60,474 nucleotides of DNA from a virus. Numbering within the stretch: position 1 is the stretch's first letter; each line of letters begins with the position of its first letter. The stretch is taken from positions 1 through 60,474 of the IMG/VR virus record IMGVR_UViG_3300045988_152007. The stretch is one strand, 5' to 3'. Below the pieces are notes generated by a model that was not told the origin of the DNA, did not search any database, and was given only the letters and a program-made list of their open reading frames with translations. The position numbers and the translations under genes are program-made. Positions 911 to 50,841 of this stretch are shown here, in pieces.

Positions 911-1047
911 ATATTCACTCCTCCGTTTTATCTTTTTATACTTCTTCTAATAATAAAAAGATGAGTAAGTTCATTATTAGAACTTACCCATCTTTTCCAA
1001 AGAAACACCAAACAAACAAAAGGAGGATGACAATATTAGAATCTTAG

Positions 1048-1121
1048 TGGACCAGGATAGGAGAATTGAACTCCCAACAGATGATTGGAAATCACCAGTT
1101 TTACCATTAAACTAATCCTGG
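1048..1121 (-). tRNA. tRNA-Gly(TCC)
   Basis: Cloverleaf by hand: acceptor CCAGGAT/ATCCTGG, D-loop AATGGTA, anticodon loop TTTCCAA, T-loop TTCAATT, CCA encoded. Confidence 0.8.
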
Positions 1122-1139
1122 ATATTATTTTATAATTCG

Positions 1140-1540
1140 CAGCATATCGGATGAGGCACTCGCCGTCCGAGTCTTCTACTAAGGGCATATGACCTCCTGT
1201 TCGATGTAATTTTTTTACCTATACTATATGCCACTAATACAATTGGTCCTTTTGTATTTTAATACCAGTGGCGGAATTTAAACCGCACATTAAGAATAAA
1301 CAATAGTATGGTAGCTATGACCCGGTTTCATGGTCGCTTTACAGGATGGCAGTCAAAAGTTGTTACCATTCGCCTAAAATCTCCATCCAAACCTCAAATG
1401 AGGAAAACATCTAAGCCGTATCATTCGGATTTCCCGACTCATTTCGACTTGCGGATTTGTTACCTACCGCCGTACTACCTGCTAACCTTTCTATGTTAGC
1501 CCCGACCCGTCTGTTCAACTGCCGTTAGCTACTATTGTTT
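1140..1540. ncRNA. unassigned GC-rich non-coding block with several hairpins (e.g. GCGG-AATTTAAA-CCGC); candidate structured RNA
   Basis: GC content far above flanking coding DNA; no credible ORF; lies between two tRNA genes. Confidence 0.2.
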
Positions 1541-1594
1541 AATGGTGCCGGTGGCGGGACTCGAACCCGCATGGTGTTGCCACCGAGGGATTTT

Positions 1595-2332
1595 CTTACT
1601 ACTCTATGTCACCATAGCCACATTTTTGTGTTGTAGTCTGGAATACGTCTTTATCATATGCACGACTTGCACTTAGATAGTTGGTATATACTCTCTACAC
1701 ATTTATTTGGAACAATTTTTTCCACGATAAGAAGATGTTTTTGCATGACAATTTGGGCATAATAATTGGAAATTATCTAATTCATTATTAAAATGATTTC
1801 CATCTTTATGATGAAGTTCTAAAGGAATTGGTTCTCCTAACCATTCGGTTAATCCACAACATTCACATTTGTACTCTTTATAACCTTCATCAAGAAGTTT
1901 TTTTCTTACTTTATTACTCTGTATATCAATACTTTTTTCTAAGTATTCTAACAAAGATAATTCATGTCCATTGGGTTTTGACAATCCTTTACAACCTTGA
2001 TTTCCAGCATATTCAAGACCAAGCTTTTTTAATACTGGATTAATTGTTTTAGGATTACAACCCAATTCTCTTGCCATTTGAGCTTTAGTTTTACCTTCAG
2101 TAATCCATTGCTCAATTTCTTCTTTGCGTTCTAAAATATCAGTTCTCATTTATATTACCTCTCTTTCATTATTACTTAAAAATTAAAAAAGGTATTTTAA
2201 TGAGTGTCGTCCAATTTTTTAGAATGTGTTCCAAAACTTAGCACGGCGTTCTCTTAGCCATTCACCGTTTTAGCCAACTTCTGCTCTAAGAGTTTCCTCT
2301 TAGGCACTCCATTTTAACGTTTGCTAAGTCAA
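1595..2332 (-). mobile_element. group I intron (738 nt) in tRNA-Leu anticodon loop, carrying an HNH homing endonuclease
   Basis: 5' exon ends in U and the intron ends in G; P7-like CAGACTA near the 3' end; ORF 1703..2149 lies inside. Confidence 0.65.
1703..2149 (-). CDS. HNH homing endonuclease (intron-encoded), N-terminal HTH
   Basis: ORF track 148 aa; motifs CECCG...ELHHKDGNHFNN...CPNCH. Confidence 0.8.
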   Translation of the reverse strand: MRTDILERKEEIEQWITEGKTKAQMARELGCNPKTINPVLKKLGLEYAGNQGCKGLSKPNGHELSLLEYLEKSIDIQSNKVRKKLLDEGYKEYKCECCGLTEWLGEPIPLELHHKDGNHFNNELDNFQLLCPNCHAKTSSYRGKNCSK

Positions 2333-2465
2333 AAGTCCCTTGTGTCTACCATTCCACCACACCGGCAAATAAACTATATTAATTAAATCAAGACTCAATT
2401 TTGAAAAATAGCAATTCATTTTAGGTGAACTTTCAAAAGTAAATTTGCTGCGTGAGCCTTACGCC

Positions 2466-2540
2466 TGGCACCGGCTCTCAGAGTCGAACTGAGACTTGCT
2501 GATTTAGAGTCAGCTGAGCTAACCGTTACCCAAAGCCGGA
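2466..2540 (-). tRNA. amber suppressor tRNA, anticodon CUA (reads UAG); U1:U72 mismatch and G73 resemble tRNA-Gln identity
   Basis: Acceptor TCCGGCT/AGCCGGT, D-stem with G-U pairs, anticodon stem GCTGA/TCAGC, loop CTCTAAA, T-arm CTCAG-TTCGACT-CTGAG, G73, CCA encoded. Confidence 0.7.
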
Positions 2541-2559
2541 ATATATATACAAGACAGTT

Positions 2560-4040
2560 TAATAAAGTATCTTCTTATGAACCAAAAACATATGATTATC
2601 TTTAATAAAAATTTGCTGAAACTGTCTTAGAGAAATTATCCTAACTTCTCTTTATCTTGTAAATATATTATACTAAATAATTTTTTTAAAATCAAATTAT
2701 TCAGTAGAATATATTTACAAAAATTAATATATCCAATAGGAATAAACTACACCATAGCCACTAACCATTTATAGGTCGCCTCTATGCCTGCCCACGCCAC
2801 TAAGTACTTCAGCTTACCTCATTCATTAGCTATTGGAATATATTAAATTTTTGACCTACCATTAAACTTATAATACCTACCAATAGGAAGTAGAATATAC
2901 AGTTTTTAATAATAGGATTTTCATTCTATAATCTAACACAATAAATAATAACTCTACCTATTATATGTCTTTTTCGTAGTCCATTACGTCTCATTTTCCA
3001 CGCCTTTATATGAGAGACTACCAAGGATCTTATTTCCGCACTTGGTAATGGCTTTTTGGTATGTGAGCCACAAACATCCCTATTCAGCTTATTTATAGTG
3101 GAGAGCTGGCTGGTTTAGCGTATTGTTCCACTACCTAATTAACCAAGATTAGGACGCTAATCAAATATCTGATACGTATCAGTACGGTTTCCAGATATAT
3201 CATTTCACCGGACAACAGGCGAGTCAACCTTATTTGATTAGATTATGTAAGAACCCTACAGCCATAGGAGCAGGTTCCGCAGAGGCCTCTAACGATGTGG
3301 GATTGGCTACCCAATGAGGTTAATGTGCAAGCCACCGCCTATATTAGCATCTACATAATTCATTTCAAATAAATCATTTAATGATTTATTTTTAACAGGA
3401 AAGGAAATCGTAAGTTATTAAATAATAACTTAATTACAATTATACTACGGACCTTCGCCCTACTGGTTAATAATCTTCATTTTATTAGGTAAGTAAGGAA
3501 ACAAGTCTGAGCTATGAATAGCGACTTCATAACTTCTTGCCCCGGCCTAAGCCAAATCTCACAGAGGACTGACTACCTCTATCTTTCACCGACCATTCAG
3601 AATAGTATTACCAATAATTTTTACTAAATTAATATCATACTGTCTTGGCAAATTTCGGCTACTTGACCCTTGACCTTCTCTTATAGTAGATTACGCCACA
3701 TCAATTGCCAACTTCCTTATTGGTATTTCCTTGGTTTGGCAAGGTTACCAGCCTTACCCTAACAAGGATTCGGCATTGCTGTTAACAATGCTGTCTATTA
3801 TGGAAGCGAGAAGAACAGGACCTTAAATGCGATTATCCCAGCACAATCTCCCCGTAGCCGCATCCTTCGATGCGTGAATCTAATGTATCACTACAAAAGA
3901 TTTAGAAATAATTTCAAAGTATCCTTTGAATATTCCATTCTACAATCTCCGCCAGAGTGGATCGATTTCTCAGCCTTATGGTGTTAAGTCTGCACTGAGT
4001 TGTACTATAACCGTAATTAAATTATTATTTAATTTTTAAA
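2560..4040. other. 1.5 kb ORF-free block, AT-rich to 2950 then ~40% GC, with degenerate tRNA-like hairpins; probably transcribed from the promoter at 4060..4088
   Basis: No ORF >=60 aa; anticodon-like hairpin GCATTG-CTGTTAA-CAATGC near 3755; perfect palindrome CTGATACGTATCAG. Confidence 0.25.
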
Positions 4041-4059
4041 GTTCATTTATTATATATAT

Positions 4060-4088
4060 ATTATATAATATTTTTTTTAAATTTTCAA
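4060..4088 (-). promoter_or_regulatory. sigma70-type promoter TTGAAA-N17-TATAAT (minus strand)
   Basis: -35 at 4083-4088 and -10 at 4060-4065 read on the minus strand; member of a conserved ~45-nt motif family. Confidence 0.6.
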
Positions 4089-4149
4089 ATTTTATTTTAA
4101 ATGGTAGGCCAGGTTGGACTTGAACCAACAACCGCATTAAGCACCTGAT

Positions 4150-4575
4150 TTATGGTGTTTGAAACGAGAATCGAACTCGAAATTTATAAGTCTAAAAGCC
4201 TTGATTATTGCTTGTTGGAGCTGTTCGTAAAGTAATCTATTTTGTATTTCCTGATTTTAAAATTTCTTTTAATGGAATTACATACATATTACCTTGAACA
4301 TCTATACAAAATAATAAATCAAGCTCAGAATGATTTAAAACATTATCATAAACAGTTCCTTTAGTACCACCGCAAGATCTTAACATTATAACATTATCCT
4401 AACTTCCAGTACATTTACATTGAACTGTCTAAAATTTACCATTTCGTTCTATAATTAAATCATACCACTGAGTATCATTTAAAGGAGTTGAGACTGTATA
4501 GCCTTTGTCAGTGAAATAGGCAATAGCCATAGCTAATCCAAAACGTCCTTTATCTTTGTTACTTTTTGACTACAA
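4150..4575 (-). CDS. PD-(D/E)XK-family putative homing endonuclease (I-Ssp6803I-like), TTG start, 3 in-frame TAG
   Basis: Paralog of ORFs 5108..5551 and 33991..34464 (shared motifs GKFxxIQCK and DxDxF); reading TAG as Q restores the homologous C-terminus. Confidence 0.55.
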
Positions 4576-4593
4576 AATGAACCTCCTTCAAAC
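4153..4593 (-). mobile_element. 441-nt intervening sequence in tRNA-Tyr, almost entirely occupied by a PD-(D/E)XK endonuclease ORF
   Basis: Flanked by complementary tRNA halves; the ORF stop codon TAA supplies anticodon-loop nucleotides of exon 2. Confidence 0.5.
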
Positions 4594-4633
4594 CAGTCAG
4601 GGGTGATACCAATTACACTGTACTGACCTATAT

Positions 4634-4708
4634 TGGCACTGGTGGCTGGATTTGAACCAACGAATACAGGAGTCAAAGTCCTGTGCCTTACCGCTTGGCG
4701 ACACCAGT
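4634..4708 (-). tRNA. tRNA-Gln(TTG)
   Basis: Acceptor ACTGGTG/CACCAGT, D-arm GCCAAGCGGTAAGGC as in E. coli tRNA-Gln, loop CTTTGAC, G73, CCA. Confidence 0.8.
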
Positions 4709-4749
4709 AAATTATAAGTAATTAATAATTTCTTATTGATTACTTATAT

Positions 4750-4778
4750 ATTATATAATATTTTTTTTTAAAATTCAA
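4750..4778 (-). promoter_or_regulatory. sigma70-type promoter TTGAAT-N17-TATAAT (minus strand)
   Basis: Motif family member; lies directly upstream of tRNA-Gln. Confidence 0.6.
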
Positions 4779-5096
4779 ATTTACAAGACACATTAAATAA
4801 ATTAACTATTATCCTACCCTTTGGATGAATTATCTTAACAGAGATAATATTGGACTTGAACCAATAACACATAGATTTTATCTAATATTTGCTGCGTGTG
4901 TCTTTACTGTTAGTTATTTAACCCCGACAACCTACTAACAAAAGGGATGGTTCAGGGGAGGTTATCTGTGTCATCTAGACCTCATTTTTTCATTCCAATA
5001 CAAATCTACTTAGGGAGATCAATCCTTTTCAATTATGTATCTTTAACAGAACCCTGATGGTCCGAGTGGCGAGACTTGAACTCACGGCCTCTTGAT

Positions 5097-5575
5097 CCAG
5101 GAAAATCTTAGATTGTCTTTAAGACCTCCTCAATTTTGTAATCATTAGCGATATGAATACCCTGTTTTTGACCAGATGAAGGATATTCATACCGCCATCT
5201 AAAAGTTGCACCAGTAGCTTCTTCAATGGAAACTAAATATCCTTGGCCTTCAAACCAAGTATAAAAATAATCAATATCATCTTTTGAATACTTATGACGA
5301 GTAGTAGATTTTGTATTAGTGGTAATACAACTTGTAGCAATTGCAAAAGCTACATTAGGTTCTTTTGTATCAGTAACCCAAGAAGATGTTTTACATTGAA
5401 TACGGATAAATTTACCCATCCCCATATCAGCTACTACATCATATTTAGAACTTTCATCAACAGATTTTAAACATCTATATCCAAGATTAGTTAAATCAAG
5501 AATACATCTTAACTCTGTTACAGTTCCTTTCTGTTGAGTAATATCTAACATATTTTTTAGACAAAAATCTCTTTT
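5097..5575 (-). mobile_element. 479-nt intervening sequence in tRNA-Pro carrying a PD-(D/E)XK endonuclease ORF
   Basis: Flanking halves complete the cloverleaf; the ORF fills 444 of 479 nt. Confidence 0.5.
5108..5551 (-). CDS. PD-(D/E)XK-family putative homing endonuclease (I-Ssp6803I-like)
   Basis: ORF track 147 aa; paralog of the 4150..4575 and 33991..34428 ORFs. Confidence 0.7.
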   Translation of the reverse strand: MLDITQQKGTVTELRCILDLTNLGYRCLKSVDESSKYDVVADMGMGKFIRIQCKTSSWVTDTKEPNVAFAIATSCITTNTKSTTRHKYSKDDIDYFYTWFEGQGYLVSIEEATGATFRWRYEYPSSGQKQGIHIANDYKIEEVLKTI

Positions 5576-5618
5576 CCCAAATCAAGCGTTCTACCAAACT
5601 GAACTACACCCGGATATA

Positions 5619-5638
5619 AAGGGTAATTAATTACCCTT
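5619..5638 (-). terminator. hairpin AAGGGTAATTAATTACCCTT downstream of gene 5644..6009
   Basis: Perfect 8-bp stem immediately after the stop codon. Confidence 0.4.
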
Positions 5639-5643
5639 ATTTA

Positions 5644-6009
5644 TTACATTTCCTTAGCGAGTCTTTCAACTACGCTATCATACATTTCCTTACCTCTTGC
5701 ACTATCATTGAAATACACAGTCATATCATCATAATACTTCTGTGCCTTCTCAAGTGCCTTAGCAGCTTCATCAAGCTTCTTAGTAGCACGCTTCAGACGC
5801 TGAGAACTGACCTTCGCCTGGCAACGTGCTGCGGCAAGCTGCTTACCCTTTTCAGTATCAAATGTATCCTTCGGATCACACTTGGCTACACCACGCACAG
5901 TCCTACCAGCATAAGTAGAAACTGCAACAACCTTATACGGCGTACCATCTGCCTTAGTGGGAATAAAATACTTGTACTTATCCAGAGAATATTCCATAAC
6001 TTTTAACAC
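5644..6009 (-). CDS. hypothetical protein (121 aa), GC-richer than neighbours
   Basis: ORF track; promoter motif directly upstream. Confidence 0.6.
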   Translation of the reverse strand: MLKVMEYSLDKYKYFIPTKADGTPYKVVAVSTYAGRTVRGVAKCDPKDTFDTEKGKQLAAARCQAKVSSQRLKRATKKLDEAAKALEKAQKYYDDMTVYFNDSARGKEMYDSVVERLAKEM

Positions 6010-6918: not shown

Positions 6919-6991
6919 AGCCGGCAGACGGATTCGAACCCCCGACCTATTGATTACAAATCAATTGCACTACCAACTGTGCTATGCCGGC
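6919..6991 (-). tRNA. tRNA-Thr(TGT)
   Basis: Acceptor GCCGGCA/TGCCGGC, D-arm GCACAGTTGGTAGTGC, loop TTTGTAA, T-loop TTCGAAT; no CCA encoded. Confidence 0.7.
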
Positions 6992-7031
6992 ATTTAAGAG
7001 AGAATTTATTTTTCCCTCAATTTCTATATAT

Positions 7032-7060
7032 ATTATATAAAATTTTTTTTAAATTTTCAA
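7032..7060 (-). promoter_or_regulatory. sigma70-type promoter TTGAAA-N17-TATAAT (minus strand)
   Basis: Motif family member. Confidence 0.6.
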
Positions 7061-7932
7061 ATTATACAACATAAATAATGTGCTAATTCTAATTGATATT
7101 CTTGCTTAAAGAAAAAAGGAACTATTGAAAAAATTATAGTGAATACATCATTTCGACCGCTTAATTTAAAGCTGTTATAAAATAATGGTAAATATTTTTC
7201 ACATATTTCATTATAAGTAATTTGATCATTCTTATAATGAAAATTCTTTAAAGGATCATCACTTTTTAATGTTTTACATTTTAAAATATCTTTTGAAGTT
7301 ACTTCTTCATATAAAGTTATTTTAGCAAATCCATTATAATGTTTATATAAATATGGACAAATAATCGGGCAAGGGTCATTGCATAAAAGTTCAAATCTAT
7401 TTCTTACTTCTATTGGAATTGATTCTAAAAACTTAAAATCTTTTATTTGTCTTCGAGGTAAAACAATTTTATCATATTTATTTAAAAGAGACAAATAATC
7501 TGTATTTTTATTTGAAGCTATTATACTTCTTTTAATTTTAAATTTAGGATATTTATTTCTTATATATTCTTCTAAAATAGAGGAAGAAACTAAAATTGAA
7601 TTATTTTCATTTTCACATAAGGAAACGATTTTATTACAATATCTATCATACAAGTCTTCTTTTGTTAATAATGGATTTGTTAAGGTTAAAGCAATTTCTA
7701 TATTATTTCCATAATAAAAATCAATAATTTCTTTTATTTTTTCTAATGAAGGTTGATAGCCTTGATTGACAGTTCCTCCATTCCAAATCATATTTGGGAA
7801 TGTATCGAATATACTCTCTATAGCTACATTAAAATTGAAACATTCTGGAGCTGTCTATTGTAATTCTAAAAGAGTTTTATATATATTAAATCCAGTATAA
7901 AATCCTGGACAATTTAAATTTATTTTTTTCAT
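7057..7932 (-). CDS. hypothetical protein, paralog family A (NIWNGG / FYxG motif), one in-frame TAG
   Basis: ORF 7057..7791 extends upstream through a TAG to ATG ~7932 (MKKINLNCPGFYTGF...). Confidence 0.55.
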
Positions 7933-11102: not shown

Positions 11103-11360
11103 TATTCTCCTATAGAATATAGCTAATTTGTTAATTTATTTAATTCTTTTGAATAATCTATATTTAAATCTTTTAGTCGTAAATCCTAATTCTATAATAA
11201 ATTTGCTAAGGTATAAATTATTTTTTTATTGACTTCTGGATTTGGTTCTTCTAAAGTAACCATATTATTGTATATAACAAATAATAAATCCATATATCCC
11301 TTATTTTCTTTTATAATATTATTTGTAATTTCTTTTAAAATATTATCTAAATTATCCATT
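11103..11360 (-). CDS. small hypothetical protein (MDNLDNILKE...) with TAGs
   Basis: Hand translation; start overlaps the stop of the upstream gene. Confidence 0.3.
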
Positions 11361-12641
11361 TAAATCATACCCCAATTCTATAGCTATGTTTTCTATTACT
11401 TTTGGTAATATTTTTTGATCTTTCGCACTTTTCAAAACTCCAGTTTCAAAATATAATTTAAATAAATAATTATATTTTTCTTGAAATAAATTACAAACTG
11501 ATAAACAAGGGATAGAAAAATCACCATAAGTTTCTATCTAAGCTCCCAAACATCCTTTAATACAGACATCTCTACACCAGCATTCTAAACATCTTGGAGC
11601 ATAAACAGGGTTAAAAGATTTCATTCCTATATAAGCTGTGGCATTATCACTTATTAAATCAATTATCTCTGTTTTTTCATCATTTATTTTAAAATGTCCA
11701 CCAATTAAATGATTATAACAAGTACGATGACAAGGAACGATAGCTAAATCTCCAACCCTTATATGGACAGTAGACTACAATGCACAGCTTATTCGGTTAT
11801 GTCTGTCTTCTTTATCTGATAAATTCATTAATCGTATAGGATCTCCATTGTGCTCATTAAATGTAGGAGTATTATTAGCCCCATCCCCTTTAAACATTGC
11901 ATAAGCCATAGTATTAATATCATTATTGCAATCATTCAATCTATCTTCAAAGATATGTTTTAAGAATTTTTTATAATTCTCTATAGATTCTTGAGTCCAA
12001 TTATTATTTCGAACTTCTAACATATAAGGAGTTTTCTACCATGAATTGTATTCTTTTAATTTCTTTTTAAACCAATCATAAGTTTTAATGGCTTTATCAA
12101 CATTTTGGCTAGAAATCATAGGATGGAAGCCATCATTATTTTCTGTAGCAAATTCAAATAATTTATTAAAATATTCATCATTTAAATCTTTATGTTCTCT
12201 AAATTCAGTGCTATACGGCCCATCAGTAGAAAATGAAAAATGAATTTCTACATTTATATCTTTCATCTTTTGGATATATTTTTTTATTTTTATTACTTTT
12301 TCATTATCAGAAATAAAACTACCATTAGTAGGTATTACTAGTTTACCTTTTTCTTTTATTTTATAAGCAAATTCATACCATTTTTTTAAATACGGAAAAA
12401 ATACATCTAGTATTTCAAAAATTAATCCATCATAAAATAAGTCTCCGGCGAATAATGACCATTCTAAAGGTTTTATTTGTTTTTTATCAAAATAATCTAA
12501 TAATAATTTTAAATTATCTAATATCTAAGAATTAGAAAAATGTTCTGGATATAATTCTTTGCCATAATTAGTTATATAACAATAATCACATTTTTGATTA
12601 CAGTCTTGTCTTATAATTAATTCTAATATTTCATTTTCCAT
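11352..12641 (-). CDS. radical SAM / SPASM-domain protein (anSME-like peptide-modifying enzyme type), in-frame TAGs
   Basis: N-terminal CNQKCDYC and C-terminal Cys-rich CHRTC...CLECWCRDVCIKGC; merges ORFs 11775..12023 and 12036..12266. Confidence 0.55.
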
Positions 12642-12721
12642 CTTTTTTAATTCATGATTAAAAATAAAATTCTAAAATAGAATATTTTCTTCCTATTGGA
12701 AATCAATAGACGTTGTTATCA

Positions 12722-14155
12722 TTATTTTTCCTCCAAAACTTCTTCAATAATTCCATTACAATATCTTCTTAAAAATCCACTATCTCTAAAGAAATAAGAA
12801 CCAGTACTGATTAAACTGTTAAAAAAGCAAGAATGTATAGGTACTAATAATAATGCTGCTTTCATTAAAAATTTATCATCATTAAATTTTTGACTTATCT
12901 AATGCACTTCTCGTAAATTACATAATAAAGAAACAATCTAATTATATACATAAAAAAAACTAGATACAGATAAAGTTTCAAATAAAAAACAACAATTTTT
13001 TATATCTTCATCTTTATCTTTCAATGGATTTATATAATTATGATGATTTGCGGCAAATTGCTTAATAATCCCAATTTTATCATTAGTATTAATATATTCT
13101 GGATTAGTATCATAAAGAGAACTCTAACAATTTACTAATGTTCCATCATATAAAAGTTTTAAGCTTCCTGTTTTTTCTCCGCAATATAAGAATGGAGTTA
13201 AGTTTCTATTATAATTCTTTAATTCTTTATTAGAGAATGCTAAAACTTTATCAAGAGCTTCATCTAAATTAGAACATTCCAAATTTTTTAATAAAAATTT
13301 TTTTGCTTTTCGAGGTAAACACAATAATCCTTCAATAGAGTCTTTATCTGGATTATTAATTTCTGGATAATGTTCTCCAATTGATTTACAAATTTTTATA
13401 AAATTACTCCAATTAATACCATCAATGCTAGAAGTATTAATAGGTAATTCGCTAGAGAAATTTATAGTATTTTTGATAAAAACAGATTTATTTAGATTTA
13501 AATTAGTTAAATATTGAATTTTTTCATTAGCCTAAATAAAATACTATTCTATTTCTTTGTAATTATTATTAAAATGATTTATGAGTTCATTACTAATAAC
13601 TCCATGAGTATTAAGAGCAATAGTAATATTATTAAAACGAATTGTATTTAAAGTTTCTATTAAATATTTTAAATTATTATATACTACTTTAGAATTAGCT
13701 CTTCTTACATTATCAGTACTATAATCTCCATCATAAGAAAACTAAATACAAATAAATGAATGTTTTTTAGTTAAATTATCAAAAGTTTTTAAAAAATCAA
13801 TTATTTTATCAGTATTAGCCATACCATTAGTAGAAGTAAAAAATTCATTAATATTGGGACATAATTCAAAAAAATCTTTTAAATTTTTAGTAAAATGTTC
13901 TAATACTAATGTAGGTTCTTGACCCCAAAAACTTATTTTATGGATATTTAATGGATCAACTTCTAATTTTTTCATAACATTTTTAATATTCTATAAATAA
14001 CTTCCATCTTTAAGAGCCTTTATAGTCTATTCTTGTAACTATTTACTATATTCATTTACAGCCTAAGCTGAATGACAATATTTACAATTTAAATTACATC
14101 CACAAGCTCCAATAATAGATAATTCTTCTATTGAAAAATCCGATATATATTTCAT
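12722..14155 (-). CDS. radical SAM protein 2, in-frame TAGs
   Basis: GACGCNLNCKYCH cluster near the N-terminus; ISFWGQEPTL glycine-rich SAM motif; merges ORFs 13124..13324 and 13742..13975. Confidence 0.5.
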
Positions 14156-14175
14156 TCCTTTTTCTCCTTTAAATG

Positions 14176-14691
14176 TTAAGTGTGACTAGAACCGTAATGA
14201 CTAGAGCATCCATGAGATGTACACCAGGTTTGATTAACCCCTGACCAATAGGAAGAATGATAACCTGAACCATCATGAGAAGAATTATAAGAAGTATCCC
14301 ATCCTGCTCCATAATTAGAACTATCCCAACTACTATTATATCCACTACCTCTATGGCTAGCATTATAACTCGCATCATGAGCGCAAGTATCATTTATGCT
14401 TCTAATTGTAGTAGTAAATCTATTAAAAATAATAGGACTAATTAAATCTCCTGCCGAAGGAGGATTTTCACTAATATTTGCTCTTGAACCAACATAACTG
14501 CTACTGGAAAAAGATTCTATATACTTATTTAAATTCTGAGCTAATTGAGCCATAGCTTGTGTTGACTATCCTCCAGGAGTCGCTTGAAAATCACTCTAAC
14601 TAGGGAAAAATTTTTTTCTTGCGGTATTTAAATTAGTAAAAATAGTCTAAATATCACTCCAATTTATTTTAGAGTTTGAACTAATTGCCAT
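14176..14691 (-). CDS. Ser/Gly/Tyr/His-rich small protein with Cys-containing C-terminus (possible modified-peptide substrate)
   Basis: ORF 14176..14553 extends through TAGs to ATG 14689-14691 after GGAGG. Confidence 0.5.
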
Positions 14692-15745
14692 ATTTTTCCT
14701 CCTCGTATTTTATAAAATCAATATACTCTTTGTTAATAAATTGTTTAATTAGTTTATTATTATCAAGTATATGATTTCCTTTATTAAATAGACTATTTAA
14801 ATTAAATAATACAGTATTATTTAATTTAATAAAATCTTCTTTTTTTATTTTATTTAATAAATCTTTATAAAACAATGATAACTTATTAAACAAAATTTTA
14901 TCATTAATTAAAATTAAACAAATAAGACTTAAACAAATTGCTTCTTCTTGTTTTATATCTTTTAGATATTCTTTGTCTTTATCAGTTACTTCTTCTATTA
15001 TAGATAAATTTACAATAATTTTATTAAAAATATGTTCGAAAATAAAATGATTATTTTCATATTTTTTATTTGTTAAATATTGTCTATAAAAATAAGTAAA
15101 AACAATTAATTCATTTATTGTCATATATAAAAAATTAATATCTTTACCCATACTTTCATTATTTCTATTATATACGTAAATAGGCTATTCTAAGAAGGGA
15201 ATTGCACCATTATAAAAATCAAAAATCTATAATGATAAAAATCTATCTTCATTATAAATAAATTTGCCATAAGAAAAATTATTTTTTATAAAAAATTCTC
15301 TATTATATAAATAACTATGAGCGTCATGGATAAATTCATTTTTATCATAGGTCTATCCATTTACAATTCCATAATTATTATTTTCAGCATATATATATAA
15401 ATTTTCTAAAGCCTTATTATCATAAAAATAATCATCACTATCTAAACAGAAAAAATACTTATTGAAGCTATTATTAATTCCTAGAGTCCTAGCTGATGCA
15501 GGGCCTGATTTAGTTTTCTAAGTATCTAATAATATTATATTGTATATATTATTATAAGTTTTATAAAATTCATATACATATTTTTTATCTGGAGAATTAT
15601 CACTAATTAAATAGATTACACAATCATTAATAATACTTTGTTTAAAGACAGAATCTAAACATTTCTAAAAATATATTTTATTTATTGTATAAAAAGGAAT
15701 TATAATATCAATTTTTCCTTCGTTGCGCTTTCTAAATGTCCTCAT
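14681..15745 (-). CDS. family 2 glycosyltransferase-like protein; may be the C-terminal part of a fusion with the upstream radical SAM domain
   Basis: IIIPFY...DSDDYF (DXD) motifs; frame is continuous with 15746..16645 when TAG is sense. Confidence 0.45.
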
Positions 15746-16645
15746 TTTATCAGGAGCATACCAAGAATCAACGTTATTCCAAGATTTCTTTTTTGAAAAA
15801 TCCTAAAAATTAGAAAAATCAACAAATTTTTTATAATATTCATTATAATTTGTTAAGAATAATTCTTTTTCTGTTTTAGTATATTCATCATAAGTTTTAG
15901 TCGATTGATCCCAATCAACCACATCTCCTGGCCGACAATATTTACATATATTTTTTTCACATAATTTTAAATTCTATAAATCTTGTAAATTTGTTTTTTC
16001 TGTTAGTTTTATAAAATCTTTATTTTCTATTAATGGAATTTGTTTAAAAAAATAATTACAAAAATTATTTATGTGTGCCCCAAACTGACAAAAATATATT
16101 TTAAAATCTTTTAATGTAAAGCAAGGAATCCTATTTGGACAACTATATATACGAGTTTTATTATCTTGTTTACCTAAAGGGTCAACCAATGTCTAATCAA
16201 AGAAAAATCTATCATTTAAATATGAGATATTTTTATTATTGCTAAAATCTTTGTAGTCTTGATTAGGATATTTAGAAATACTTATATGTATATTTAATTC
16301 TTCTAATTTTTTTAATTTTTTTGTATCATAATTATTTAAAATTATACCATTAGTTAATATCTTTATTTCTATCTCTGGGAGAATATTTCTAGCTATCTAA
16401 CATAATTCTATTAAATTAGGATGTAAAAATGGTTCTCCCCCTAATAGCATTAAAACTTTAATAGAAGGCAAAGTTTTTTTTACTAATTTTAGCTAATTTT
16501 GAAAATCTTCGTAAGTAATAAAAAATGGAGAAGCCAAAGGAGAAAAATGATTACAATTATTACATTGTAAGTTGCAATGGTCTACTAAATGAATTTCTAA
16601 TTCAAATCCATCAAAAACTGTAGGCCAAAATGCTCTAGTAGGTCC
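15746..16645 (-). CDS. radical SAM domain protein 3, possible GTG start
   Basis: LVDHCNLQCNNCNHF and MLLGGEPFLHP motifs; same frame as ORF 15974..16189. Confidence 0.4.
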
Positions 16646-30636: not shown

Positions 30637-31039
30637 ATATCATAATTGGCTATAGACCCTTAACTATCTATGATTTAAATACGCCACAATTACCATGAAG
30701 CTTAGCGATACCAATTATTTTAAAAAACAAGACTCATTGAAAAGCCAAAATAAAAACGCGGAATTTAGCTTACTAAACCAGCTAAAAAGAAAAAACTTTT
30801 CAAAATATACTTTATTTTCTTTATTATACTTTTTCATCTATTATTTGATAAGTAAGTATTGTAGAGCCTTTGTAGGCAAAAGTTTGCTGAAAATGAGTCT
30901 TAATATATGAGGGGTGGAAAAGAATACCTTGTTGTCTTTGCCCTCGACAAGGTTTAACCGTATTATACGAAAGTAGGGTTATGTTAATGTAAGATTAGTT
31001 TAAACATCATCGCCACGGGAAGGCTCTTACTTGATGACG

Positions 31040-31124
31040 CATAGGAGCAAGGGATTCGAACCCTGGATGTGTAGCTACAATTAGTTTTGGAGACTAACCC
31101 AATCGACCACTCTGGCACTCCTAC
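31040..31124 (-). tRNA. unusual tRNA with anticodon CCA and a long (15-nt) variable arm
   Basis: Acceptor GTAGGAG/CTCCTAT, D-arm CCAG-AGTGGTCGA-TTGG, anticodon arm TTAGT-CTCCAAA-ACTAA, V-arm TTGTAGCTACACATC, T-loop TTCGAAT. Confidence 0.45.
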
Positions 31125-33289: not shown

Positions 33290-33440
33290 TCGACCAGACA
33301 GTAGGACTCGAACCTACAACACACGGCTCCCAAAGCAAATTTATAATTGCTGTATTGTCTTTCATAAATGGTGGAGCCAGAGGGAATCGCACCCTCGACT
33401 TTGAATTAAATTCAACGTTTTCCTACCATAAACTATGTCC
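33290..33440 (-). other. two tandem degenerate tRNA-like elements (T-arm plus acceptor 3' strand; one has anticodon-like loop ATTTAAT)
   Basis: T-loops TTCGAGT and TGCGATT with flanking stems but imperfect or absent 5' acceptor strands. Confidence 0.25.
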
Positions 33441-33542
33441 CCAAATATGATGGTTATAAAACTTAATCTAATGCAGGCATCAGATTAATAGAACGCTCTA
33501 TCAAGTTCTATGTTTCAAAATCGCTTATATCGGGAAAGCGAA

Positions 33543-33705: not shown

Positions 33706-33870
33706 TTCATCAGAAATCATTTTTTCAGATTTCTCTTTTTCTTTCGCCCTATCATATTCCATACCCTTACCTTTCTTGGCAGGCACAATAGATCTACGAC
33801 GACGAAACAGAAGATACTCGTTCAACTCTGTATTATCCATTTTAATTGCAGGTTTTTTAGTAGTTGCCAT
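33706..33870 (-). CDS. small basic protein (~55 aa, MATTKKPAIK...)
   Basis: ATG ~33870 after AGGAGAT; sits between a promoter and tRNA-Glu. Confidence 0.35.
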
Positions 33871-33900
33871 TTCAAATATCTCCTTTATTATTATATATAT

Positions 33901-33929
33901 ATTATATAATATTTTTTTTAAATTTTCAA
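33901..33929 (-). promoter_or_regulatory. sigma70-type promoter TTGAAA-N17-TATAAT (minus strand)
   Basis: Motif family member. Confidence 0.6.
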
Positions 33930-33977
33930 ATTTATTGGTGCAGGATATTGGATTCGAACCAATGACCTCTTGGATTA

Positions 33978-34456
33978 CTTAGCAATGCTCTTACAATTTC
34001 TTCAACACCTCCTCCGCCAAATAATCTTGAGCGAAATTAATACCAATTCGTTGTCCATTTTTAGGGGGGGTATAACGAATAGATTTAGTAGCTCCGCTAC
34101 ATTCTTCAACAGGAATTAAATAAACTTTTCCTTGGTGATAAGTAGCGAAAAAATCAATATCATTTTTTGTGTATGGAGTTTTTTTATAACCAGTCGTATT
34201 ATGACTTTGCCATCTCGTAGCAAAAGAAAAATGTGTAATTTCTCCTAATGTATATTCATCTTTAGCATGTTTAACTTGAACTTTATAAAGTTTACCTTTA
34301 TAATCCATAATTAAATCATACTTTTGACTATTTCCAAAAGGAAATGAAATATCACATCCCAGTTCATAAAGACCAGTAATACATTGTAATTCTGCTAAAT
34401 TACCGACTTCTTTAGAATTTCGTGTCATAAAATAGAAATTAAAAGAGTTTGCCGAG
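33978..34456 (-). mobile_element. 479-nt intervening sequence in a tRNA gene carrying a PD-(D/E)XK endonuclease ORF
   Basis: Same organisation and length as the insertion at 5097..5575. Confidence 0.5.
33991..34428 (-). CDS. PD-(D/E)XK-family putative homing endonuclease (I-Ssp6803I-like)
   Basis: ORF 33991..34464; probable start at the internal Met (MTRNSKEV) because 34457+ is tRNA exon sequence. Confidence 0.65.
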   Translation of the reverse strand: MTRNSKEVGNLAELQCITGLYELGCDISFPFGNSQKYDLIMDYKGKLYKVQVKHAKDEYTLGEITHFSFATRWQSHNTTGYKKTPYTKNDIDFFATYHQGKVYLIPVEECSGATKSIRYTPPKNGQRIGINFAQDYLAEEVLKKL

Positions 34457-35035
34457 TAAACCAAACGCTCTAACCAGCTGAGCTAATCCCGCATATAGTC
34501 TACTTAATTAAACTGCCAAGAAAAATTAAATAGACTTTTATAAAAATTCCTCATTGGGTATGGAGGCTATATCAAACTGGCTTTTACAGTAGGCCCAGTA
34601 AAGTGGATCTGCTTGATTTCCACAAGTATGAGTTTAATTAAAACAATTTTAACTCTAATTAAAACCTTGTTGCCTAGACTTTGACTATACATAGCGTTTG
34701 GACAAGGTAACTCAAACCTCGGGTTTCACTGTTACGTCGCTCCCCTAAGAACCAACGGAATGTTTTTCGATTACATTCAACGCCTTCTTTTGCTGTCCAA
34801 ACATGGCAGGTATCCTTTCCATCTTTTATCTTGTTCAACACAAGATGTGCTACCTTTATTGGTATCTCATACGCACGGTCTCCCGCAATATGATCTTGCC
34901 ATTACTCTTTAAGATTCTCTAATAGGATGAACTACGAGAATTTTGCTATCTTATATTACTTACGCGTTTTCATATAAGTGCCATTTAACGTCAGCGATGC
35001 TTTATGAAATTTCTCAAACTTGACCTGGTGATGGT

Positions 35036-35110
35036 GGAGGGATTTGAACCCTCGGTACCCTGCTTAAAAGGCAGGTGCCTTACCACTAGGCCACACCATC
35101 ATTCAATTTT
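35036..35110 (-). tRNA. tRNA-Lys(TTT)
   Basis: Acceptor GATGGTG/CACCATC, D-arm GCCTAGTGGTAAGGC, loop CTTTTAA, T-loop TTCAAAT, A73, CCA. Confidence 0.8.
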
Positions 35111-35676
35111 ATAATGTTGTTCAGCATGACAATTAGCACATAATAACTAACATTTATCAACTTCTTTTAATAAATTTTCAAAAGAAAATTCACCTTCATT
35201 TAAATTTACTTGAGAAATTGTAAATTCTTTTTCTTGCGGATTTAAATGATGAAACTATAAAGCTCCTTCACATTTATCATAACCACAAATTTCACATTTT
35301 CCGCCTTTATATACTATTAATTTATGTTTAATAATTCTTTTGATATGTCTTAATCGGTCAGCTGCTGATATATTGTCTGGAGAACAATTAAAACAATATT
35401 TTCTTTTAGGATTATTAGTTATAAACTTTTCTCCACAAATTAAGCATTGCTTTTCTTTGCTAATATTAAAAAGATTATTTTCATTATGCTACCCGCAACT
35501 TGTAGTTCTACCATCTGTTAAATGACAAGTCTAAATAATTTTATGAGTTCCGCATAATAAACATTCACATTCCCAATAAGTCTTTTTATTTCTAGTAGGA
35601 GCTTTCTAAATACATTTTAAATTTCCAAATACTTTATTCGTTAAATCTAAGGCTTTTGGCAATTAATTACCTTCTT
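35109..35676 (-). CDS. HNH homing endonuclease (~189 aa), probable TTG start, 4 in-frame TAG; stop overlaps the first nt of tRNA-Lys
   Basis: Hand translation: CEICGYDKCEGALQFHHLNP...LLCANCHAEQH. Confidence 0.5.
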
Positions 35677-36270
35677 TCTATTTTATTCTATTATATTTAG
35701 GAAATAAAAGTAATTAATTAGCTCACTTCGTCCAAATTTATTTTTTTCGACTGAGCTACAACCGCATATCGCATTTCAGAGGTTCCGGACCCTCCTGAGC
35801 AGCGTCACTCAAATAAGATTTTGTCACCTAATTTTTAAAACCTTATCAAAAAACAAACCAGTTTTTTAGCTGAACCTTTAACTCCCTTTCCGTTTTTACT
35901 TATATGTCAAGAAACAACCAAAGAGAAAGTATAAAAAGATAACATATAGGCAGATCATTTATAGACGCACACTATAAACTCGTCTTGCGGTCATGTTATT
36001 TTATAATCAAGTAAGTAATAACTTCAACCGCATTTCTTTAACTTAAATAACCTTTAATAATAGTCCTATATTAAATAATTAGTTATGGGCGACTATTATT
36101 TCCCAGCTTTAATTAATCCTTCTATTGGAATTGAACCAATACCTCCGCCTCTTTCAGGCAGCATGCTTCCATTACACCAAGAAGTAATATACATATGGCT
36201 TATTTACATAACGATGGAGCCACCAACCACCGAGCCTTGATTATAGTGAGTATAGCTACTACTTCACTAT

Positions 36271-36346
36271 TGGTACCGGTGAAAGGACTCGAACCTTCAG
36301 ATTAATGATCCTAAATCATTCGCCTATGCCATTCGGCTACACCGGC
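36271..36346 (-). tRNA. type I tRNA with anticodon UAG (Leu CUN by anticodon, but short V-arm)
   Basis: Acceptor GCCGGTG/CACCGGT, anticodon stem AATGA/TCATT, loop TTTAGGA, T-arm GAAGG-TTCGAGT-CCTTT, A73, CCA. Confidence 0.5.
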
Positions 36347-36599
36347 ATATGGTGGAAAGAAGTATTTCACCTTTTATAGCGCGCTTCTCCCCGTTCCCGC
36401 GCTACCCCTCTCCCAATTAGCTTGATTACAAGAAGATTTTACTATGAAGTTCATCATAGCTAACTATAAAATTTCTTTATAGCTATATATATTAAAACCC
36501 GATTTCCCTTTGCCTCAGTTTATTTTTAATTGGTCTATTGCCAACGGTAGGTGACTAATCTACCTAGTTCAAATCGGAAACCCCATGTATAAGACCAAT

Positions 36600-36676
36600 T
36601 GGTGGGACAGAGAGGTATCGAACCTCCATCCTTTGGTTTTTCAGACCAATGCTCCGACCTCGTAAGCTACTGTCCC
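36600..36676 (-). tRNA. tRNA-Phe(GAA)
   Basis: Acceptor GGGACAG/CTGTCCC, loop CTGAAAA, T-arm GGAGG-TTCGATA-CCTCT, A73, CCA. Confidence 0.8.
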
Positions 36677-36716
36677 ATACAAATGAGAATTTATTTCTCA
36701 TTTATTTTGTATATAT

Positions 36717-36745
36717 ATTTTATAATATTTTTTTTAATTTTTCAA
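36717..36745 (-). promoter_or_regulatory. sigma70-type promoter TTGAAA-N17-TAAAAT (minus strand)
   Basis: Motif family member with a variant -10. Confidence 0.45.
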
Positions 36746-36985
36746 TTAAACTTCAGGATGACGAACAAAAAATTCAATAAACAAGCCTTCATCCTGCTTA
36801 CTATCACAGAAAAGTTCCAATTCATCACCATGCTGGCCGAGCAATGCACCAAGTGCAATATACTGTGAAAGTGCAGATTTCATATTATATCTATCACCCT
36901 GCGGACTAACCAGCCATACATTACTATGTGCCCGATTAACTGCTGCGATAAAATCTTCAACCTACTTAATATTTGTCAACTTCAT
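36746..36985 (-). CDS. small hypothetical protein (~80 aa), one TAG
   Basis: Hand translation MKLTNIKQVEDFIAAVNRAH...; GC-richer codons. Confidence 0.35.
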
Positions 36986-37011
36986 TATTTTGATTCCTTT
37001 CTATTGGAATA

Positions 37012-37159
37012 TGGTGGGGCCGGTTGGATTCGAACCAACGATTTGGCAATTTGGCCCAAAATGTTAGGTTTGAACTCACATCTTTCTTGCGCATAGACTA
37101 TTTTACCATTTAAACTAATCTTGGATAAGTTGCCGGCCTTACCGCTTGGCCACGACCCC
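37012..37159 (-). tRNA. tRNA with Gln-like D-arm split by a 73-nt anticodon-loop insertion (37055..37127); anticodon CCA under the U/G boundary rule, UCA or UAA under others
   Basis: Exon1 GGGGTCG-TG-GCC-AAGCGGTAA-GGC-C-GGCAA-CT; exon2 CCAAA-TTGCC-AAATC-GTTGG-TTCGAAT-CCAAC-CGGCCCC-A-CCA. Confidence 0.45.
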
Positions 37160-37190
37160 ATTTATTTAATTTCTTATTGATTACTTATAT

Positions 37191-37219
37191 ATTATATTAT
37201 ATTTTTTTAATTTTTTCAA
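37191..37219 (-). promoter_or_regulatory. sigma70-type promoter TTGAAA-N17-TATAAT (minus strand)
   Basis: Motif family member. Confidence 0.6.
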
Positions 37220-37250
37220 ATTAAGAAATTTACCCAAGACTTTTTATACT

Positions 37251-37325
37251 TGGCTCCAAGGAAGGAATTCGAATCCTTATTTTCAGAATTAACTCTGATG
37301 AATTATCCAGTTATTCGACCACGGA
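37251..37325 (-). tRNA. tRNA-like gene with an aberrant 6/8-nt anticodon loop (GTTAAT); anticodon unclear (UAA or AAU)
   Basis: Acceptor TCCGTGG/CCTTGGA with one mismatch, D-arm GAAT-AACTGGATA-ATTC, T-arm AAGGA-TTCGAAT-TCCTT, G73, CCA. Confidence 0.35.
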
Positions 37326-38281: not shown

Positions 38282-38932
38282 TTATAATGGTTCATTTCTA
38301 CCTGTGCCACTACATGTGCCAGTACAGCTTTTACATAAACCTGAACAACTTCCTCCACACAATCCAGTACAATCGTTAGCACAATGTCTTGTACAGCTAC
38401 CACTGCATCCACTACATCCTGTATAGCATCCACCTGAGCAAGAACCACTACATCCGCTACAGCTACCACTACAACTGCTTCGACATCCGCCTCTGCAAGT
38501 GTTTTGACAACCTCCTTGGCAAGTATTCTTACAACTACCTAAACAAGTTCCCTAACATTGTACTCCACAACTTTCGCTACAACTGGTAGAACATAATCCA
38601 GTGCAATAAGCTGAACATCCAGTATTCGAATCAGTTAATCCCATAGCTTGATAAGCTGTAATTTTTGCCTCTAATGTACTTAAATCATCATCTTTAATAA
38701 CATTTATATTTTCATTCTGATTTTCAATATTTATTGCCGCCATAGGTTCTACCAGTTTTGTTATGTGTTCTTTTGAAATAACTTTTCCATTATCAGGCTA
38801 AGTAGTATAATCATAAGAAGTCCCTCCATATGAACTTACACTACCGGTATATTTACGACGTAAACATTCAGCCTTTATTTTTTTCTTTAATTCATTGAAT
38901 CTATCAGAAGTTATTGTCGTTCCTATTTTCAT
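38282..38932 (-). CDS. Cys-rich repetitive protein (216 aa; about 30 Cys in the C-terminal 110 aa with GCSGSCSG-type repeats), one TAG; candidate radical-SAM substrate
   Basis: 651 nt in frame; AAGGAGA before ATG; contains ORF 38552..38743, which ends in TAG. Confidence 0.55.
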
Positions 38933-40620: not shown

Positions 40621-40929
40621 TTATAAACCAAGCTTTTCAATTAAAGCTTTTAAATTTTCTTCTTCTTCTGGACTAATTTCTGTAGCCTTCTTTACAGACT
40701 GAATTGTTGCACCATCTTCAAAATTAAGTTCATTATTACCAAAATCCATAGAACCAAAATTTTCCACAGGAGTTTTCGGACAAGTTAAACTAATTGCAAT
40801 CTGAATATATTGTCCATTTTCTTTAGCTCGCACATAATACTTTTTATCATAAGATCCGAGGAAATCTTCACCAAATGCTTCTGCAATTTTTTCTACAACA
40901 GCATCTTTAGCAATACTACCTTTTGCCAT
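40621..40929 (-). CDS. hypothetical protein (102 aa)
   Basis: ORF track. Confidence 0.55.
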   Translation of the reverse strand: MAKGSIAKDAVVEKIAEAFGEDFLGSYDKKYYVRAKENGQYIQIAISLTCPKTPVENFGSMDFGNNELNFEDGATIQSVKKATEISPEEEENLKALIEKLGL

Positions 40930-42251: not shown

Positions 42252-42331
42252 TAATTTATCAATATTTAAAAGGTTAATATCCAGCCCCTATGAATAGGCA
42301 ATAACCTTCTTTACTTGTTCTTTAATTTCAT

Positions 42332-50762: not shown

Positions 50763-50841
50763 ATCTCTCCCATCCTTTCTATATATATTATATCAAATTT
50801 TTTATAAATTTTCGAGTATTCAATTTTGGCAAGAATTTAAA

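Follow-up and report, generated by a model that had tools for sequence, protein, structure and literature searches.

How can a tRNA be made from a gene whose anticodon loop is interrupted by 441 to 480 nucleotides (nts) that are almost entirely protein coding? Three genes, for tRNA-Tyr, tRNA-Pro and tRNA-Val, raise this question in a 60,474 nt stretch of phage DNA (the window) from IMG/VR record IMGVR_UViG_3300045988_152007, which represents about 60 kb of ~188-kb human-gut metagenome contigs. Each insertion carries an open reading frame (ORF) for a protein of a PD-(D/E)XK homing endonuclease family. The answer to which we lean, with a confidence that falls a little short of even, is that the elements are mobile homing-endonuclease cassettes that act as tRNA introns without a ribozyme, being excised by enzymes, with the exons resealed by an RNA ligase.

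The interrupted genes and their mobility

All tRNA genes of the window are on the minus strand. A default ARAGORN run reports 13 tRNAs and misses the interrupted Tyr, Pro and Val genes; two further tRNAs of the window are interrupted as well (37159..37012 and 2366..1543). With the three insertions removed, ARAGORN recognises a tRNA-Tyr(gta) of 87 nts and a tRNA-Pro(tgg) and a tRNA-Val(tac) of 77 nts each; all three have a complete cloverleaf, and their anticodon loops are of 7 nts. An initial annotation of this DNA had proposed that the three genes are split in the anticodon loop and that the flanking halves still form complete cloverleaves. The ARAGORN results bear out both proposals, and comparison with an uninterrupted relative, L135, bears out the splitting.

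The tRNA-Tyr(GUA) gene (4629..4102) has its 441-nt intron (4593..4153) between nts 34 and 35. The 5′ exon (4594..4629; nts 1–34, ending ...CCTGA-CTG) is identical to its counterpart in the uninterrupted tRNA-Tyr of L135, and the 3′ exon (4102..4152; TAAA-TCAGG...) has a long variable arm and an encoded CCA. The L135 gene, ...CCTGA CTGTAAA TCAGG..., matches the two exons at all but one base, so the Tyr intron is exactly GTTTGAA...TTCAAAC-A-CCA, with no alignment ambiguity. In the tRNA-Pro(UGG) gene (5613..5058) a 479-nt intron (5576..5098) separates nts 1–36 (5577..5613) from the 3′ exon (5058..5097). Sequence alone also allows insertion at 35/36; homologous elements fix it at 36/37. The tRNA-Val(UAC) gene (34492..33936) has a 480-nt intron (34455..33976), placed at 36/37 by the rule described below for its class. 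Its 5′ exon (34456..34492; nts 1–36) has the acceptor stem pair G3:U70, and its 3′ exon is at 33936..33975. The gene bound first given, 34491, leaves out the initial G, and of the two insertions said to be exactly 479 nts the Pro one is and the Val one is not.

The insertion ORFs, on the minus strand like their genes, specify 141 (Tyr, 4150..4575), 147 (Pro, 5108..5551) and 145 (Val, 33991..34428) amino acids. All match Pfam PF11645 (PDDEXK_5) above its gathering score of 26.1, with 64.2, 69.5 and 91.1 bits and E-values of 1.6e-17, 3.7e-19 and 8.1e-26 respectively, and they are 30–37% identical to each other. The best solved relative of the Pro protein (E 4e-4) is PDB 2OST, a 151-residue chain deposited as ‘putative endonuclease’, which we take to be I-Ssp6803I. 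Aligned to it, the catalytic YD and QxK are invariant in all three paralogues, i.e. the D...(E/Q)xK motif is kept. The mutual homology of the ORFs as PD-(D/E)XK proteins and their likeness to the endonuclease of the Synechocystis tRNA-fMet intron, both suggested at the outset, are upheld by the PF11645 membership and by the 2OST match. Judged by family match and motif, the intron proteins are ordinary members of the I-Ssp6803I family. Each ORF does take up nearly the whole of its insertion, though the measured share is 91–96% rather than 92–97%, leaving 18 non-coding nts in the Tyr intron, 25+10 (35) in the Pro intron and 27+15 (42) in the Val intron.

The Tyr-intron ORF has a TTG start after AGGAGG, and its TAA stop does supply anticodon-loop nucleotides, being nts 35–37 of the tRNA. 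It contains five in-frame TAG codons (the Pro ORF has none) and is open only if these are read through, so its translation needs the tRNA with anticodon CUA, an amber suppressor, that ARAGORN places at 2466..2540 (minus strand). In-frame TAG is frequent in ORFs at 7–44 kb of the window and absent from most ORFs at 44–60 kb. This is the pattern of a TAG-recoded phage.

Related elements were collected at 123 loci from IMG/VR. The Tyr intron is present in the window and in L136, and absent in L135. The Pro intron is present in the window, and the tRNA-Pro genes of L135 and L136 are uninterrupted between flanks identical to those of the window. The window tRNA-Pro exons differ at many positions from the L135/L136 tRNA body; such strongly differing exons between identical flanks are a signature of exon co-conversion during homing. 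L135 has a 66-nt ORF-less intron in its tRNA-Gln, which is intact in the window (4634..4708). For tRNA-Val no intron-less gene was found in the same phage lineage. A direct search of viral contigs with the Val ORF gave no match, and a profile search did find relatives. In the cultured Enterococcus phage EFP01 (KY549443) an ORF homologous to these, 42% identical to the Val ORF, is found inside tRNA-Asn, where comparison of CTGTT[463 nt]AA with the CTGTTAA of phages iF6 and EFDG1 gives an unambiguous insertion between nts 36 and 37; some 29 Schiekvirus genomes at 92–98% identity carry an intact tRNA-Asn.

Presence and absence at identical sites in near-identical phages are as expected for mobile elements. 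Intron-less homologues in relatives, which had been set beforehand as the refutation test for the proposed exons, align to them exactly. The positions of 100 distinct ORFs bear on this: 43 are located within tRNA genes, another 33 directly next to one and 10 more at a distance of less than 500 nts. The elements are mobile insertions of a homing-endonuclease gene family that is tightly tied to tRNA genes, and the presence/absence polymorphism with the exon co-conversion suggests that homing may proceed by cutting of the intron-less allele. The PDDEXK_5 family is common in gut phages and occurs in Enterococcus, Pectobacterium, Salmonella and haloarchaeal viruses. Intact tRNA-Tyr and other tRNA genes have homologous ORFs directly upstream in many contigs, as they do in phages My1 and 241; in Pectobacterium phage My1 (L125) one overlaps the start of tRNA-Ile by a few nts.

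Other homing-endonuclease genes also come and go here. In Enterococcus phage 113 (L133, 29814..31524) the tRNA-Asn gene that is interrupted in EFP01 is beside two free-standing HNH genes. Two ~188-kb contigs of the same phage (L139 and L140) differ at positions 1000..3500 by an HNH gene in one and an extra GIY-YIG gene in the other, and L135 has a GIY-YIG gene at a place where the window has none. Such differences between near-identical genomes show that homing-endonuclease genes turn over quickly in the neighbourhood of the tRNA arrays.

Two kinds of intron ends

The RNA ends of the elements are under selection for structures that involve the exons, and these structures are of two kinds. Class I comprises the Tyr intron, a 73-nt intron at 37124..37052, those of L009, L012, L024, L025, L033, L040, L043 and L046, and a set of mini-introns. 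The first 7 nts of a class I intron pair with the 7 nts directly after a hairpin that has a 5-bp stem and a TTCRANY loop; a discriminator follows, usually then CCA, and then the 3′ exon. The intron is thus bounded by a tRNA-like minihelix of acceptor-like stem and T-arm. In the Tyr intron the acceptor-like 5′ strand GTTTGAA (4587..4593) pairs with 4157..4163, the T-arm-like hairpin TCGAG-TTCGATT-CTCGT (4164..4180) is within the 3′ end of the ORF, and TTCAAAC, discriminator A and CCA complete the intron (4153..4163), its final nt being the A of CCA. The 73-nt intron (37052..37124, minus strand) is ORF-less and runs CCAAGAT...T-like hairpin...ATTTTGG-G-CCA. Its host gene (37012..37159, minus strand), which has an Rfam tRNA match over 145 nts and was also analysed by ARAGORN in spliced form, is tRNA-Ile(UAU) by the class I rule; in the ARAGORN output it is Trp(CCA), the terminal CCA of the intron being taken as the anticodon.

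Comparison of 12 class I elements supports the pairing. Of the 60 cells at acceptor-like pairs 2–6, 59 are paired, with as many as five types of pair at a position, and the T-like stem covaries though it is within coding sequence. When the intron is taken to extend from the start of the stem to N(CCA), what remains is always a 7-nt loop with the expected anticodon. Two natural intron-less alleles agree with these boundaries. The insertion point varies (32/33, 34/35, 35/36 or 36/37), as would follow if the cuts were set by the intron itself. Where introns end in N-CCA (six loci), neighbouring tRNA genes encode CCA in 47 of 57 cases; where they end at the discriminator (three loci), in 2 of 28.

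ORF-less class I mini-introns of 47–66 nts occur in Gln and Leu tRNAs at L135 (~6969..7109, Gln), L025 (4291..4424) and L055 (398..533), with further loci at L069 (3276..3399) and L048 (44..174). Several share a hairpin loop, RGCAGYA, in place of the T-loop. The class I rule makes the L069 tRNA a Gln tRNA, and ARAGORN makes it Glu. A third kind of element may exist, consisting of anticodon-loop insertions of 31–67 nts with a GGTC...GACC hairpin and an (A/T)CAGCAA motif and with neither CCA nor ORF. Candidates for it are at L011 (2528..2666), L019 (2527..2665), L014 (2481..2634), L043 (1838..1959), L004 (196..316) and L087 (3130..3251).

Class II comprises the Pro and Val introns, the EFP01 element and elements in Thr, Asn, Ser, Asp, Met, Arg, Glu and Lys tRNAs. 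The minihelix of the Tyr and 73-nt introns is not found in the Pro and Val introns, which lack both T-arm and CCA. Insertion is at 36/37, and the last 3 nts of the intron pair with the anticodon: CTG with TGG in Pro and GTA with TAC in Val. Over 10 anticodons 65 of 66 cells are paired, against 31–34 in slid controls. In each of the 22 elements nt 37 is the partner of U33, and intron positions +1 and −4 pair in 21 of them. Beyond these pairs the 5′ untranslated region (UTR) pairs with the 3′ end of the ORF, prolonging the anticodon stem as a rod. Among 11 Pro-type sequences 97% of rod cells are paired (41–60% when slid), and in 12 of 20 pairs both partners have changed, among them every one of the five pairs of the distal helix between 5′ UTR and ORF 3′ end. 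The Val rod has a minimum free energy of −27.6 kcal/mol (shuffles −11.9±2.9, z −5.5), and the Val intron carries a conserved CAA-A / CA-TTG motif. The two junctions are on opposite strands of a continuous duplex, one on either side of the 3-bp anticodon:tail helix, with a 3′ stagger of 3 nts. All class II elements seen have an ORF; ORF-less elements are class I or of another type. A reading of the Val gene as an ochre suppressor, made by ARAGORN, is rejected: the 36/37 rule, the L052 orthologue and the other class II elements give UAC, and ORFs of this phage end in TAA.

Removal of the introns

What might remove such introns? The initial annotation had judged that there is too little room for a group I core, and it left the splicing mechanism open, rightly on the present evidence. 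A group I intron follows a U and ends in G (PMC11915505). The window junctions are G|...A (Tyr), G|...G (Pro) and C|...A (Val), and among the 22 class II elements the last exon nt is U in 12, G in five and C in five, and the last intron nt A in 10, G in five, C in five and U in two. A core of ~200 nts has no room, outside the ORF or overlapping it, in introns with 18, 35 or 42 non-coding nts, and ORF-less class I relatives are 47–73 nts long. Codon-level comparison of 11 Pro-type ORFs gives synonymous identities of 0.56–0.86 in all 9-codon windows, and no ribozyme-sized block of synonymous constraint was found within them. Rfam group I and II models have no match in the whole window at gathering scores, and with limits of E<=10 for 3900..5800 and of E<=1 for 33800..37300 no Rfam intron or ribozyme model matches in these intervals. 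On its own this negative is weak, because Rfam also misses a 736-nt insertion with an HNH gene in another tRNA of the window that has the U and G ends; junctions, space, synonymous data and the sizes of ORF-less relatives carry the conclusion beyond it. The introns are not members of group I, three defining features of which were tested and found lacking. A group II intron or other known ribozyme is likewise rejected, given the lack of an Rfam match, the junctions and the lack of space.

The steps that the favoured reading places at the DNA level, targeting and copying in, are largely shown. The PDDEXK_5 enzyme, like I-Ssp6803I, would target the anticodon stem-loop of the uninterrupted tRNA gene, and repair would copy in the element, at times together with donor exons. 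For the RNA level we infer that the pre-tRNA would first serve as mRNA, after which enzymes rather than self-splicing would cut out the intron and an RNA ligase would seal the tRNA halves. With class I introns RNase P would cut exactly at the 5′ junction, before the first intron nt of the tRNA look-alike, and an RNase Z-type 3′-end endonuclease exactly at the 3′ junction, after the discriminator or CCA. The coincidence of the boundaries with such sites and the match between intron and gene CCA point to these cleavages. They would leave a 3′-OH and a 5′-phosphate in the anticodon loop, the substrate of an ATP-dependent phage RNA ligase. RNase Z enzymes are documented whose cut follows either the discriminator or an encoded CCA, depending on the case (PMC7479834). 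The predicted spliced junctions are CTGACTG|TAAATCAGG (Tyr), TTTGG|GATCAAG (Pro), TTTAC|ATCCAAG (Val) and CTGTT|AACCAGT (EFP01 Asn).

The nuclease for class II is harder to name. The intron’s own PD-(D/E)XK enzyme is a candidate of low probability. Excision of the rod by RNase III is rejected, as in the pairing register seen a 7-nt final loop needs an odd overhang (3) and the RNase III stagger is 2 nts. RNase P cleavage at both junctions, which are within a continuous helix with no free 3′ tail, is a low-probability idea.

Genes of RNA-repair type are present in the phage. A protein family scan identifies, all on the minus strand, a metallophosphoesterase (47803..48582), an RlaP ‘RNA repair pathway’ nucleotidyltransferase (48780..49586) and an AAA_33, polynucleotide-kinase-like P-loop kinase (56047..56592). 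No RNA ligase was found among the window proteins scanned; a 456-residue one (L137, 1119..2489) is encoded in the neighbouring part of the same contig, ~5.6 kb beyond the high end of the window. It matches Pfam RNA_ligase at 31.2 bits (cut-off 27), belongs to PF09414, carries an OB domain at its N-terminus and shares 43% identity with annotated phage RNA ligases; a sequence search for PDB homologues gave none. Schiekvirus annotation has no ligase in EFP01 at 1–50 kb or in phage 113 at 100–150 kb.

Several points weigh against enzymatic splicing as just outlined. It is predicted from sequence rather than observed in RNA, and the intact exons could reflect recent or repeated homing and not function. 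Acceptor pairs 1–2 are both mismatched in L009, and pair 1 is G:A in L024 and L033. When the 73-nt intron is folded as a single sequence, its acceptor-like stem does not appear (z −0.2), and folding of a Tyr mini-construct favours pairing of the Shine-Dalgarno sequence with the T-stem strand. Class II elements, having neither T-arm nor CCA and with their junctions in a continuous helix, are poor substrates for RNase P, and the 2-nt stagger of RNase III does not fit those junctions. An encoded CCA inhibits Bacillus RNase Z (PMC7479834). Since exonucleolytic 3′ trimming would destroy the 3′ exon, an exact cut after CCA needs a particular kind of enzyme. A tblastn search with the gut-phage ligase, which bears on this ligase family only, had no Enterococcus phage among the matches listed.

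The main rival is that the insertions are dead ends: the tRNA genes are inactivated, no mature tRNA is made, and the RNA structures serve the selfish gene only, by releasing or stabilising its mRNA through RNase P/Z cuts or by controlling its translation. We rate this, in whichever form, as unlikely though a real contender. Homing-endonuclease genes are selfish, many members of this family are free-standing beside tRNA genes, the host tRNA has decayed in L021 and L022, and EFP01 is the sole carrier of its insert among ~30 relatives, which tells for a dead end and against splicing alike. In two-piece permuted tmRNA, moreover, tRNA-processing enzymes excise an intervening RNA without religation (PMC11915505). 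Against a dead end, the element ends coincide to the nucleotide with predicted processing sites and leave exons ready for ligation, and the class II intron tail is matched to the host anticodon across 10 anticodons, a match that mRNA release alone does not need. All interrupted tRNAs of the window have perfect cloverleaves, ARAGORN sees no second Tyr, Pro or Val gene there, and the phage encodes an RNA ligase. Self-splicing, by a group I core overlapping the ORF or by an unrecognised small ribozyme made of the paired intron ends, would have precedent on its side: to our knowledge all known bacterial and phage tRNA introns self-splice, and the founding member of the ORF family presumably sits in a group I intron. 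It suits elements that move between hosts, and the Rfam negative does not decide against it, given the unmatched HNH insertion. The junctions, the shortage of non-coding nts, the small ORF-less relatives and the failure to find either synonymous constraint of ribozyme size or an Rfam ribozyme in the two intervals searched make it improbable all the same.

For the Pro/Val type, the intron-encoded PD-(D/E)XK protein might itself be the splicing endonuclease, the rod, with nts 27–36 paired to their complement, mimicking the left half and centre of its DNA target. Consistent with this, the RNA junctions flank the three anticodon pairs with a 3-nt 3′ stagger, I-Ssp6803I reportedly cuts DNA to leave a 3-nt 3′ overhang, and no class II element seen is without the ORF. 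However, the conserved YD...QxK residues are those of a metal-dependent DNase, we know of no cleavage of A-form double-stranded RNA by such enzymes, and the intron side of the rod is unlike the right half-site. We give the proposal little credence, even though PD-(D/E)XK folds include RNA nucleases, e.g. the archaeal tRNA splicing endonuclease (PMC3424549). Splicing of archaeal type, in which an EndA-like endonuclease cuts a bulge-helix-bulge (BHB) motif and RtcB joins the exons, is suggested by intron ends that pair and prolong the anticodon stem. Archaeal BHB introns can, besides, carry homing-endonuclease genes. The class II consensus fold and pair counts have neither the two 3-nt bulges nor the 4-bp helix of that motif; the 3-bp anticodon:tail segment is continuous with both neighbouring helices. 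The insertion position is 36/37 or variable, not 37/38, and neither EndA nor RtcB was seen among ~20 window proteins scanned or in the Pfam labels of flanking genes, a scan that leaves ~110 kb of the genome and the host outside it. This route is very improbable. The split-tRNA alternative in the initial annotation, with unligated halves held together by base pairing and functional, can point to the complementary acceptor and anticodon stems that the halves keep. The break, though, is inside or beside the anticodon (34/35 or 36/37), where a nicked tRNA is not expected to decode, and tRNAs nicked at the anticodon by anticodon nucleases are inactive. It is scarcely credible.

Surrounding features and known systems

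The HNH-interrupted tRNA (2366..1543, read from the minus strand) has its 736-nt insertion in the anticodon loop. It is a type II tRNA, probably Leu(UAA); the HNH ORF is at 1703..2149, and ~290 nts of the insertion are non-coding. The 5′ exon ends in U and the insertion in G, like group I tRNA-Leu introns, and Rfam gives no group I match for it even at E<=1. Directly downstream is a RAGATH-33 RNA (1417..1529, minus strand), and directly downstream of the interrupted tRNA-Tyr is a ROOL RNA (3430..4023, minus strand; 323 bits), so that the tRNA array contains large or unexplained structured RNAs. Two other tRNAs are unusual: a low-scoring one at 33372..33442 (minus strand) has anticodon UUA and is formally an ochre suppressor, though ORFs here stop at TAA, and an 86-nt one at 31039..31124 (minus strand) has anticodon CCA (Trp) and a long variable arm atypical for Trp.

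Located among the RNA-repair-type genes are three paralogues of 475–572 amino acids (40929..42356, 44847..46490 and 50788..52506 (-)) whose C-termini are Cys-rich and which share an HPLDY..S(D/E)N...W.SC motif. Pfam gives no significant match for any of them, and PHROG gives none for the single paralogue compared with it (44847..46490). At 38282..40244 and 11352..16450 (-) several radical-SAM-like genes adjoin a gene for a Cys-rich repeat protein, whose counterpart in a relative has the Pfam label tSAM_targ_Cxxx_rpt; this suggests a peptide-modification cassette in a phage late region.

Textbook bacterial and phage tRNA introns self-splice, and protein-dependent tRNA splicing belongs to archaea and eukaryotes. 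Searches of full-text literature turned up no account of tRNA introns that lack a ribozyme, whether in bacteria or in phages. With the proviso that splicing is a prediction, we rate the present elements as a categorically new intron type. Bolder is the proposition that they are the first enzyme-spliced introns of the bacterial world and use a route new to all domains, with tRNA mimicry, the universal end-processing enzymes RNase P and RNase Z, a phage ligase and, in the rod class, a PD-(D/E)XK protein possibly serving as RNA endonuclease; we regard it as possible but doubtful. If true, the rod-class enzyme would offer a present-day parallel to the descent from such DNases that has been proposed for the archaeal/eukaryotic tRNA splicing endonuclease. 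Splicing would make this large, conserved and mobile family of ribozyme-less introns an added route in tRNA biology, would imply a second role for phage RNA ligases and ‘RNA repair’ cassettes, and would bear on the origin of enzymatic tRNA splicing. There is also a practical side. ARAGORN overlooks Tyr altogether, and its anticodons differ from the derived ones for Val (ochre suppressor), for the tRNA with the 73-nt intron (Trp, not Ile) and for one Gln (Glu); as standard tRNA finders miss or mis-assign interrupted genes, phage tRNA repertoires and codon-recoding inferences are biased. EFP01 is in culture and has ~29 sequenced intron-less relatives, which makes the splicing question testable now.

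Among known systems the closest by protein is the Synechocystis tRNA-fMet group I intron, whose I-Ssp6803I is of the same PF11645 family and which occupies the same site, the tRNA anticodon loop. The presumed homing target of I-Ssp6803I is the pseudo-palindromic anticodon stem-loop DNA (PMC3384342), and the same target is presumed for the phage ORFs. The Synechocystis ORF is inside a self-splicing ribozyme, whereas the phage introns have no ribozyme, do not follow the U/G rule and are 91–96% ORF. The I-Ssp6803I family was described as ‘generally encoded in cyanobacteria’ (PMC3384342). Free-standing homing-endonuclease genes adjoin phage tRNAs; in the window such genes lie inside tRNAs instead and have acquired structured RNA ends.

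Archaeal BHB introns are alike in their protein-dependent excision (as proposed here), in paired ends that prolong the anticodon stem, in anticodon:intron pairing and in having mobile, ORF-carrying versions. They differ in that the phage elements have no bulges, a 3-bp rather than a 4-bp helix, an insertion point at 36/37 or variable, a bacterial virus as host and PD-(D/E)XK instead of LAGLIDADG enzymes. Plant mitochondrial t-elements, mascRNA and permuted two-piece tmRNA have, as class I has, a tRNA-like module in a longer transcript, and an embedded acceptor/T-arm module of this kind directs RNase P and RNase Z cuts (PMC11915505, PMC1920247). Those cuts make RNA ends that are not religated; the class I module is nested in a real tRNA, and its exons need exact rejoining. 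In phage T4 repair, where PrrC cuts, Pnkp heals and Rnl1 seals, a ligase closes a break in the anticodon loop, and a kinase, phosphoesterase, RlaP and ligase are present here. T4 mends damage inflicted by its host, whereas in the present phage the break would be one programmed step in taking out the intron, and the ligase is of PF09414 with an N-terminal OB domain, not Rnl1. By analogy, the elements would work most like archaeal enzyme-spliced introns, with class I resembling also tRNA-like processing signals coupled to T4-style sealing.

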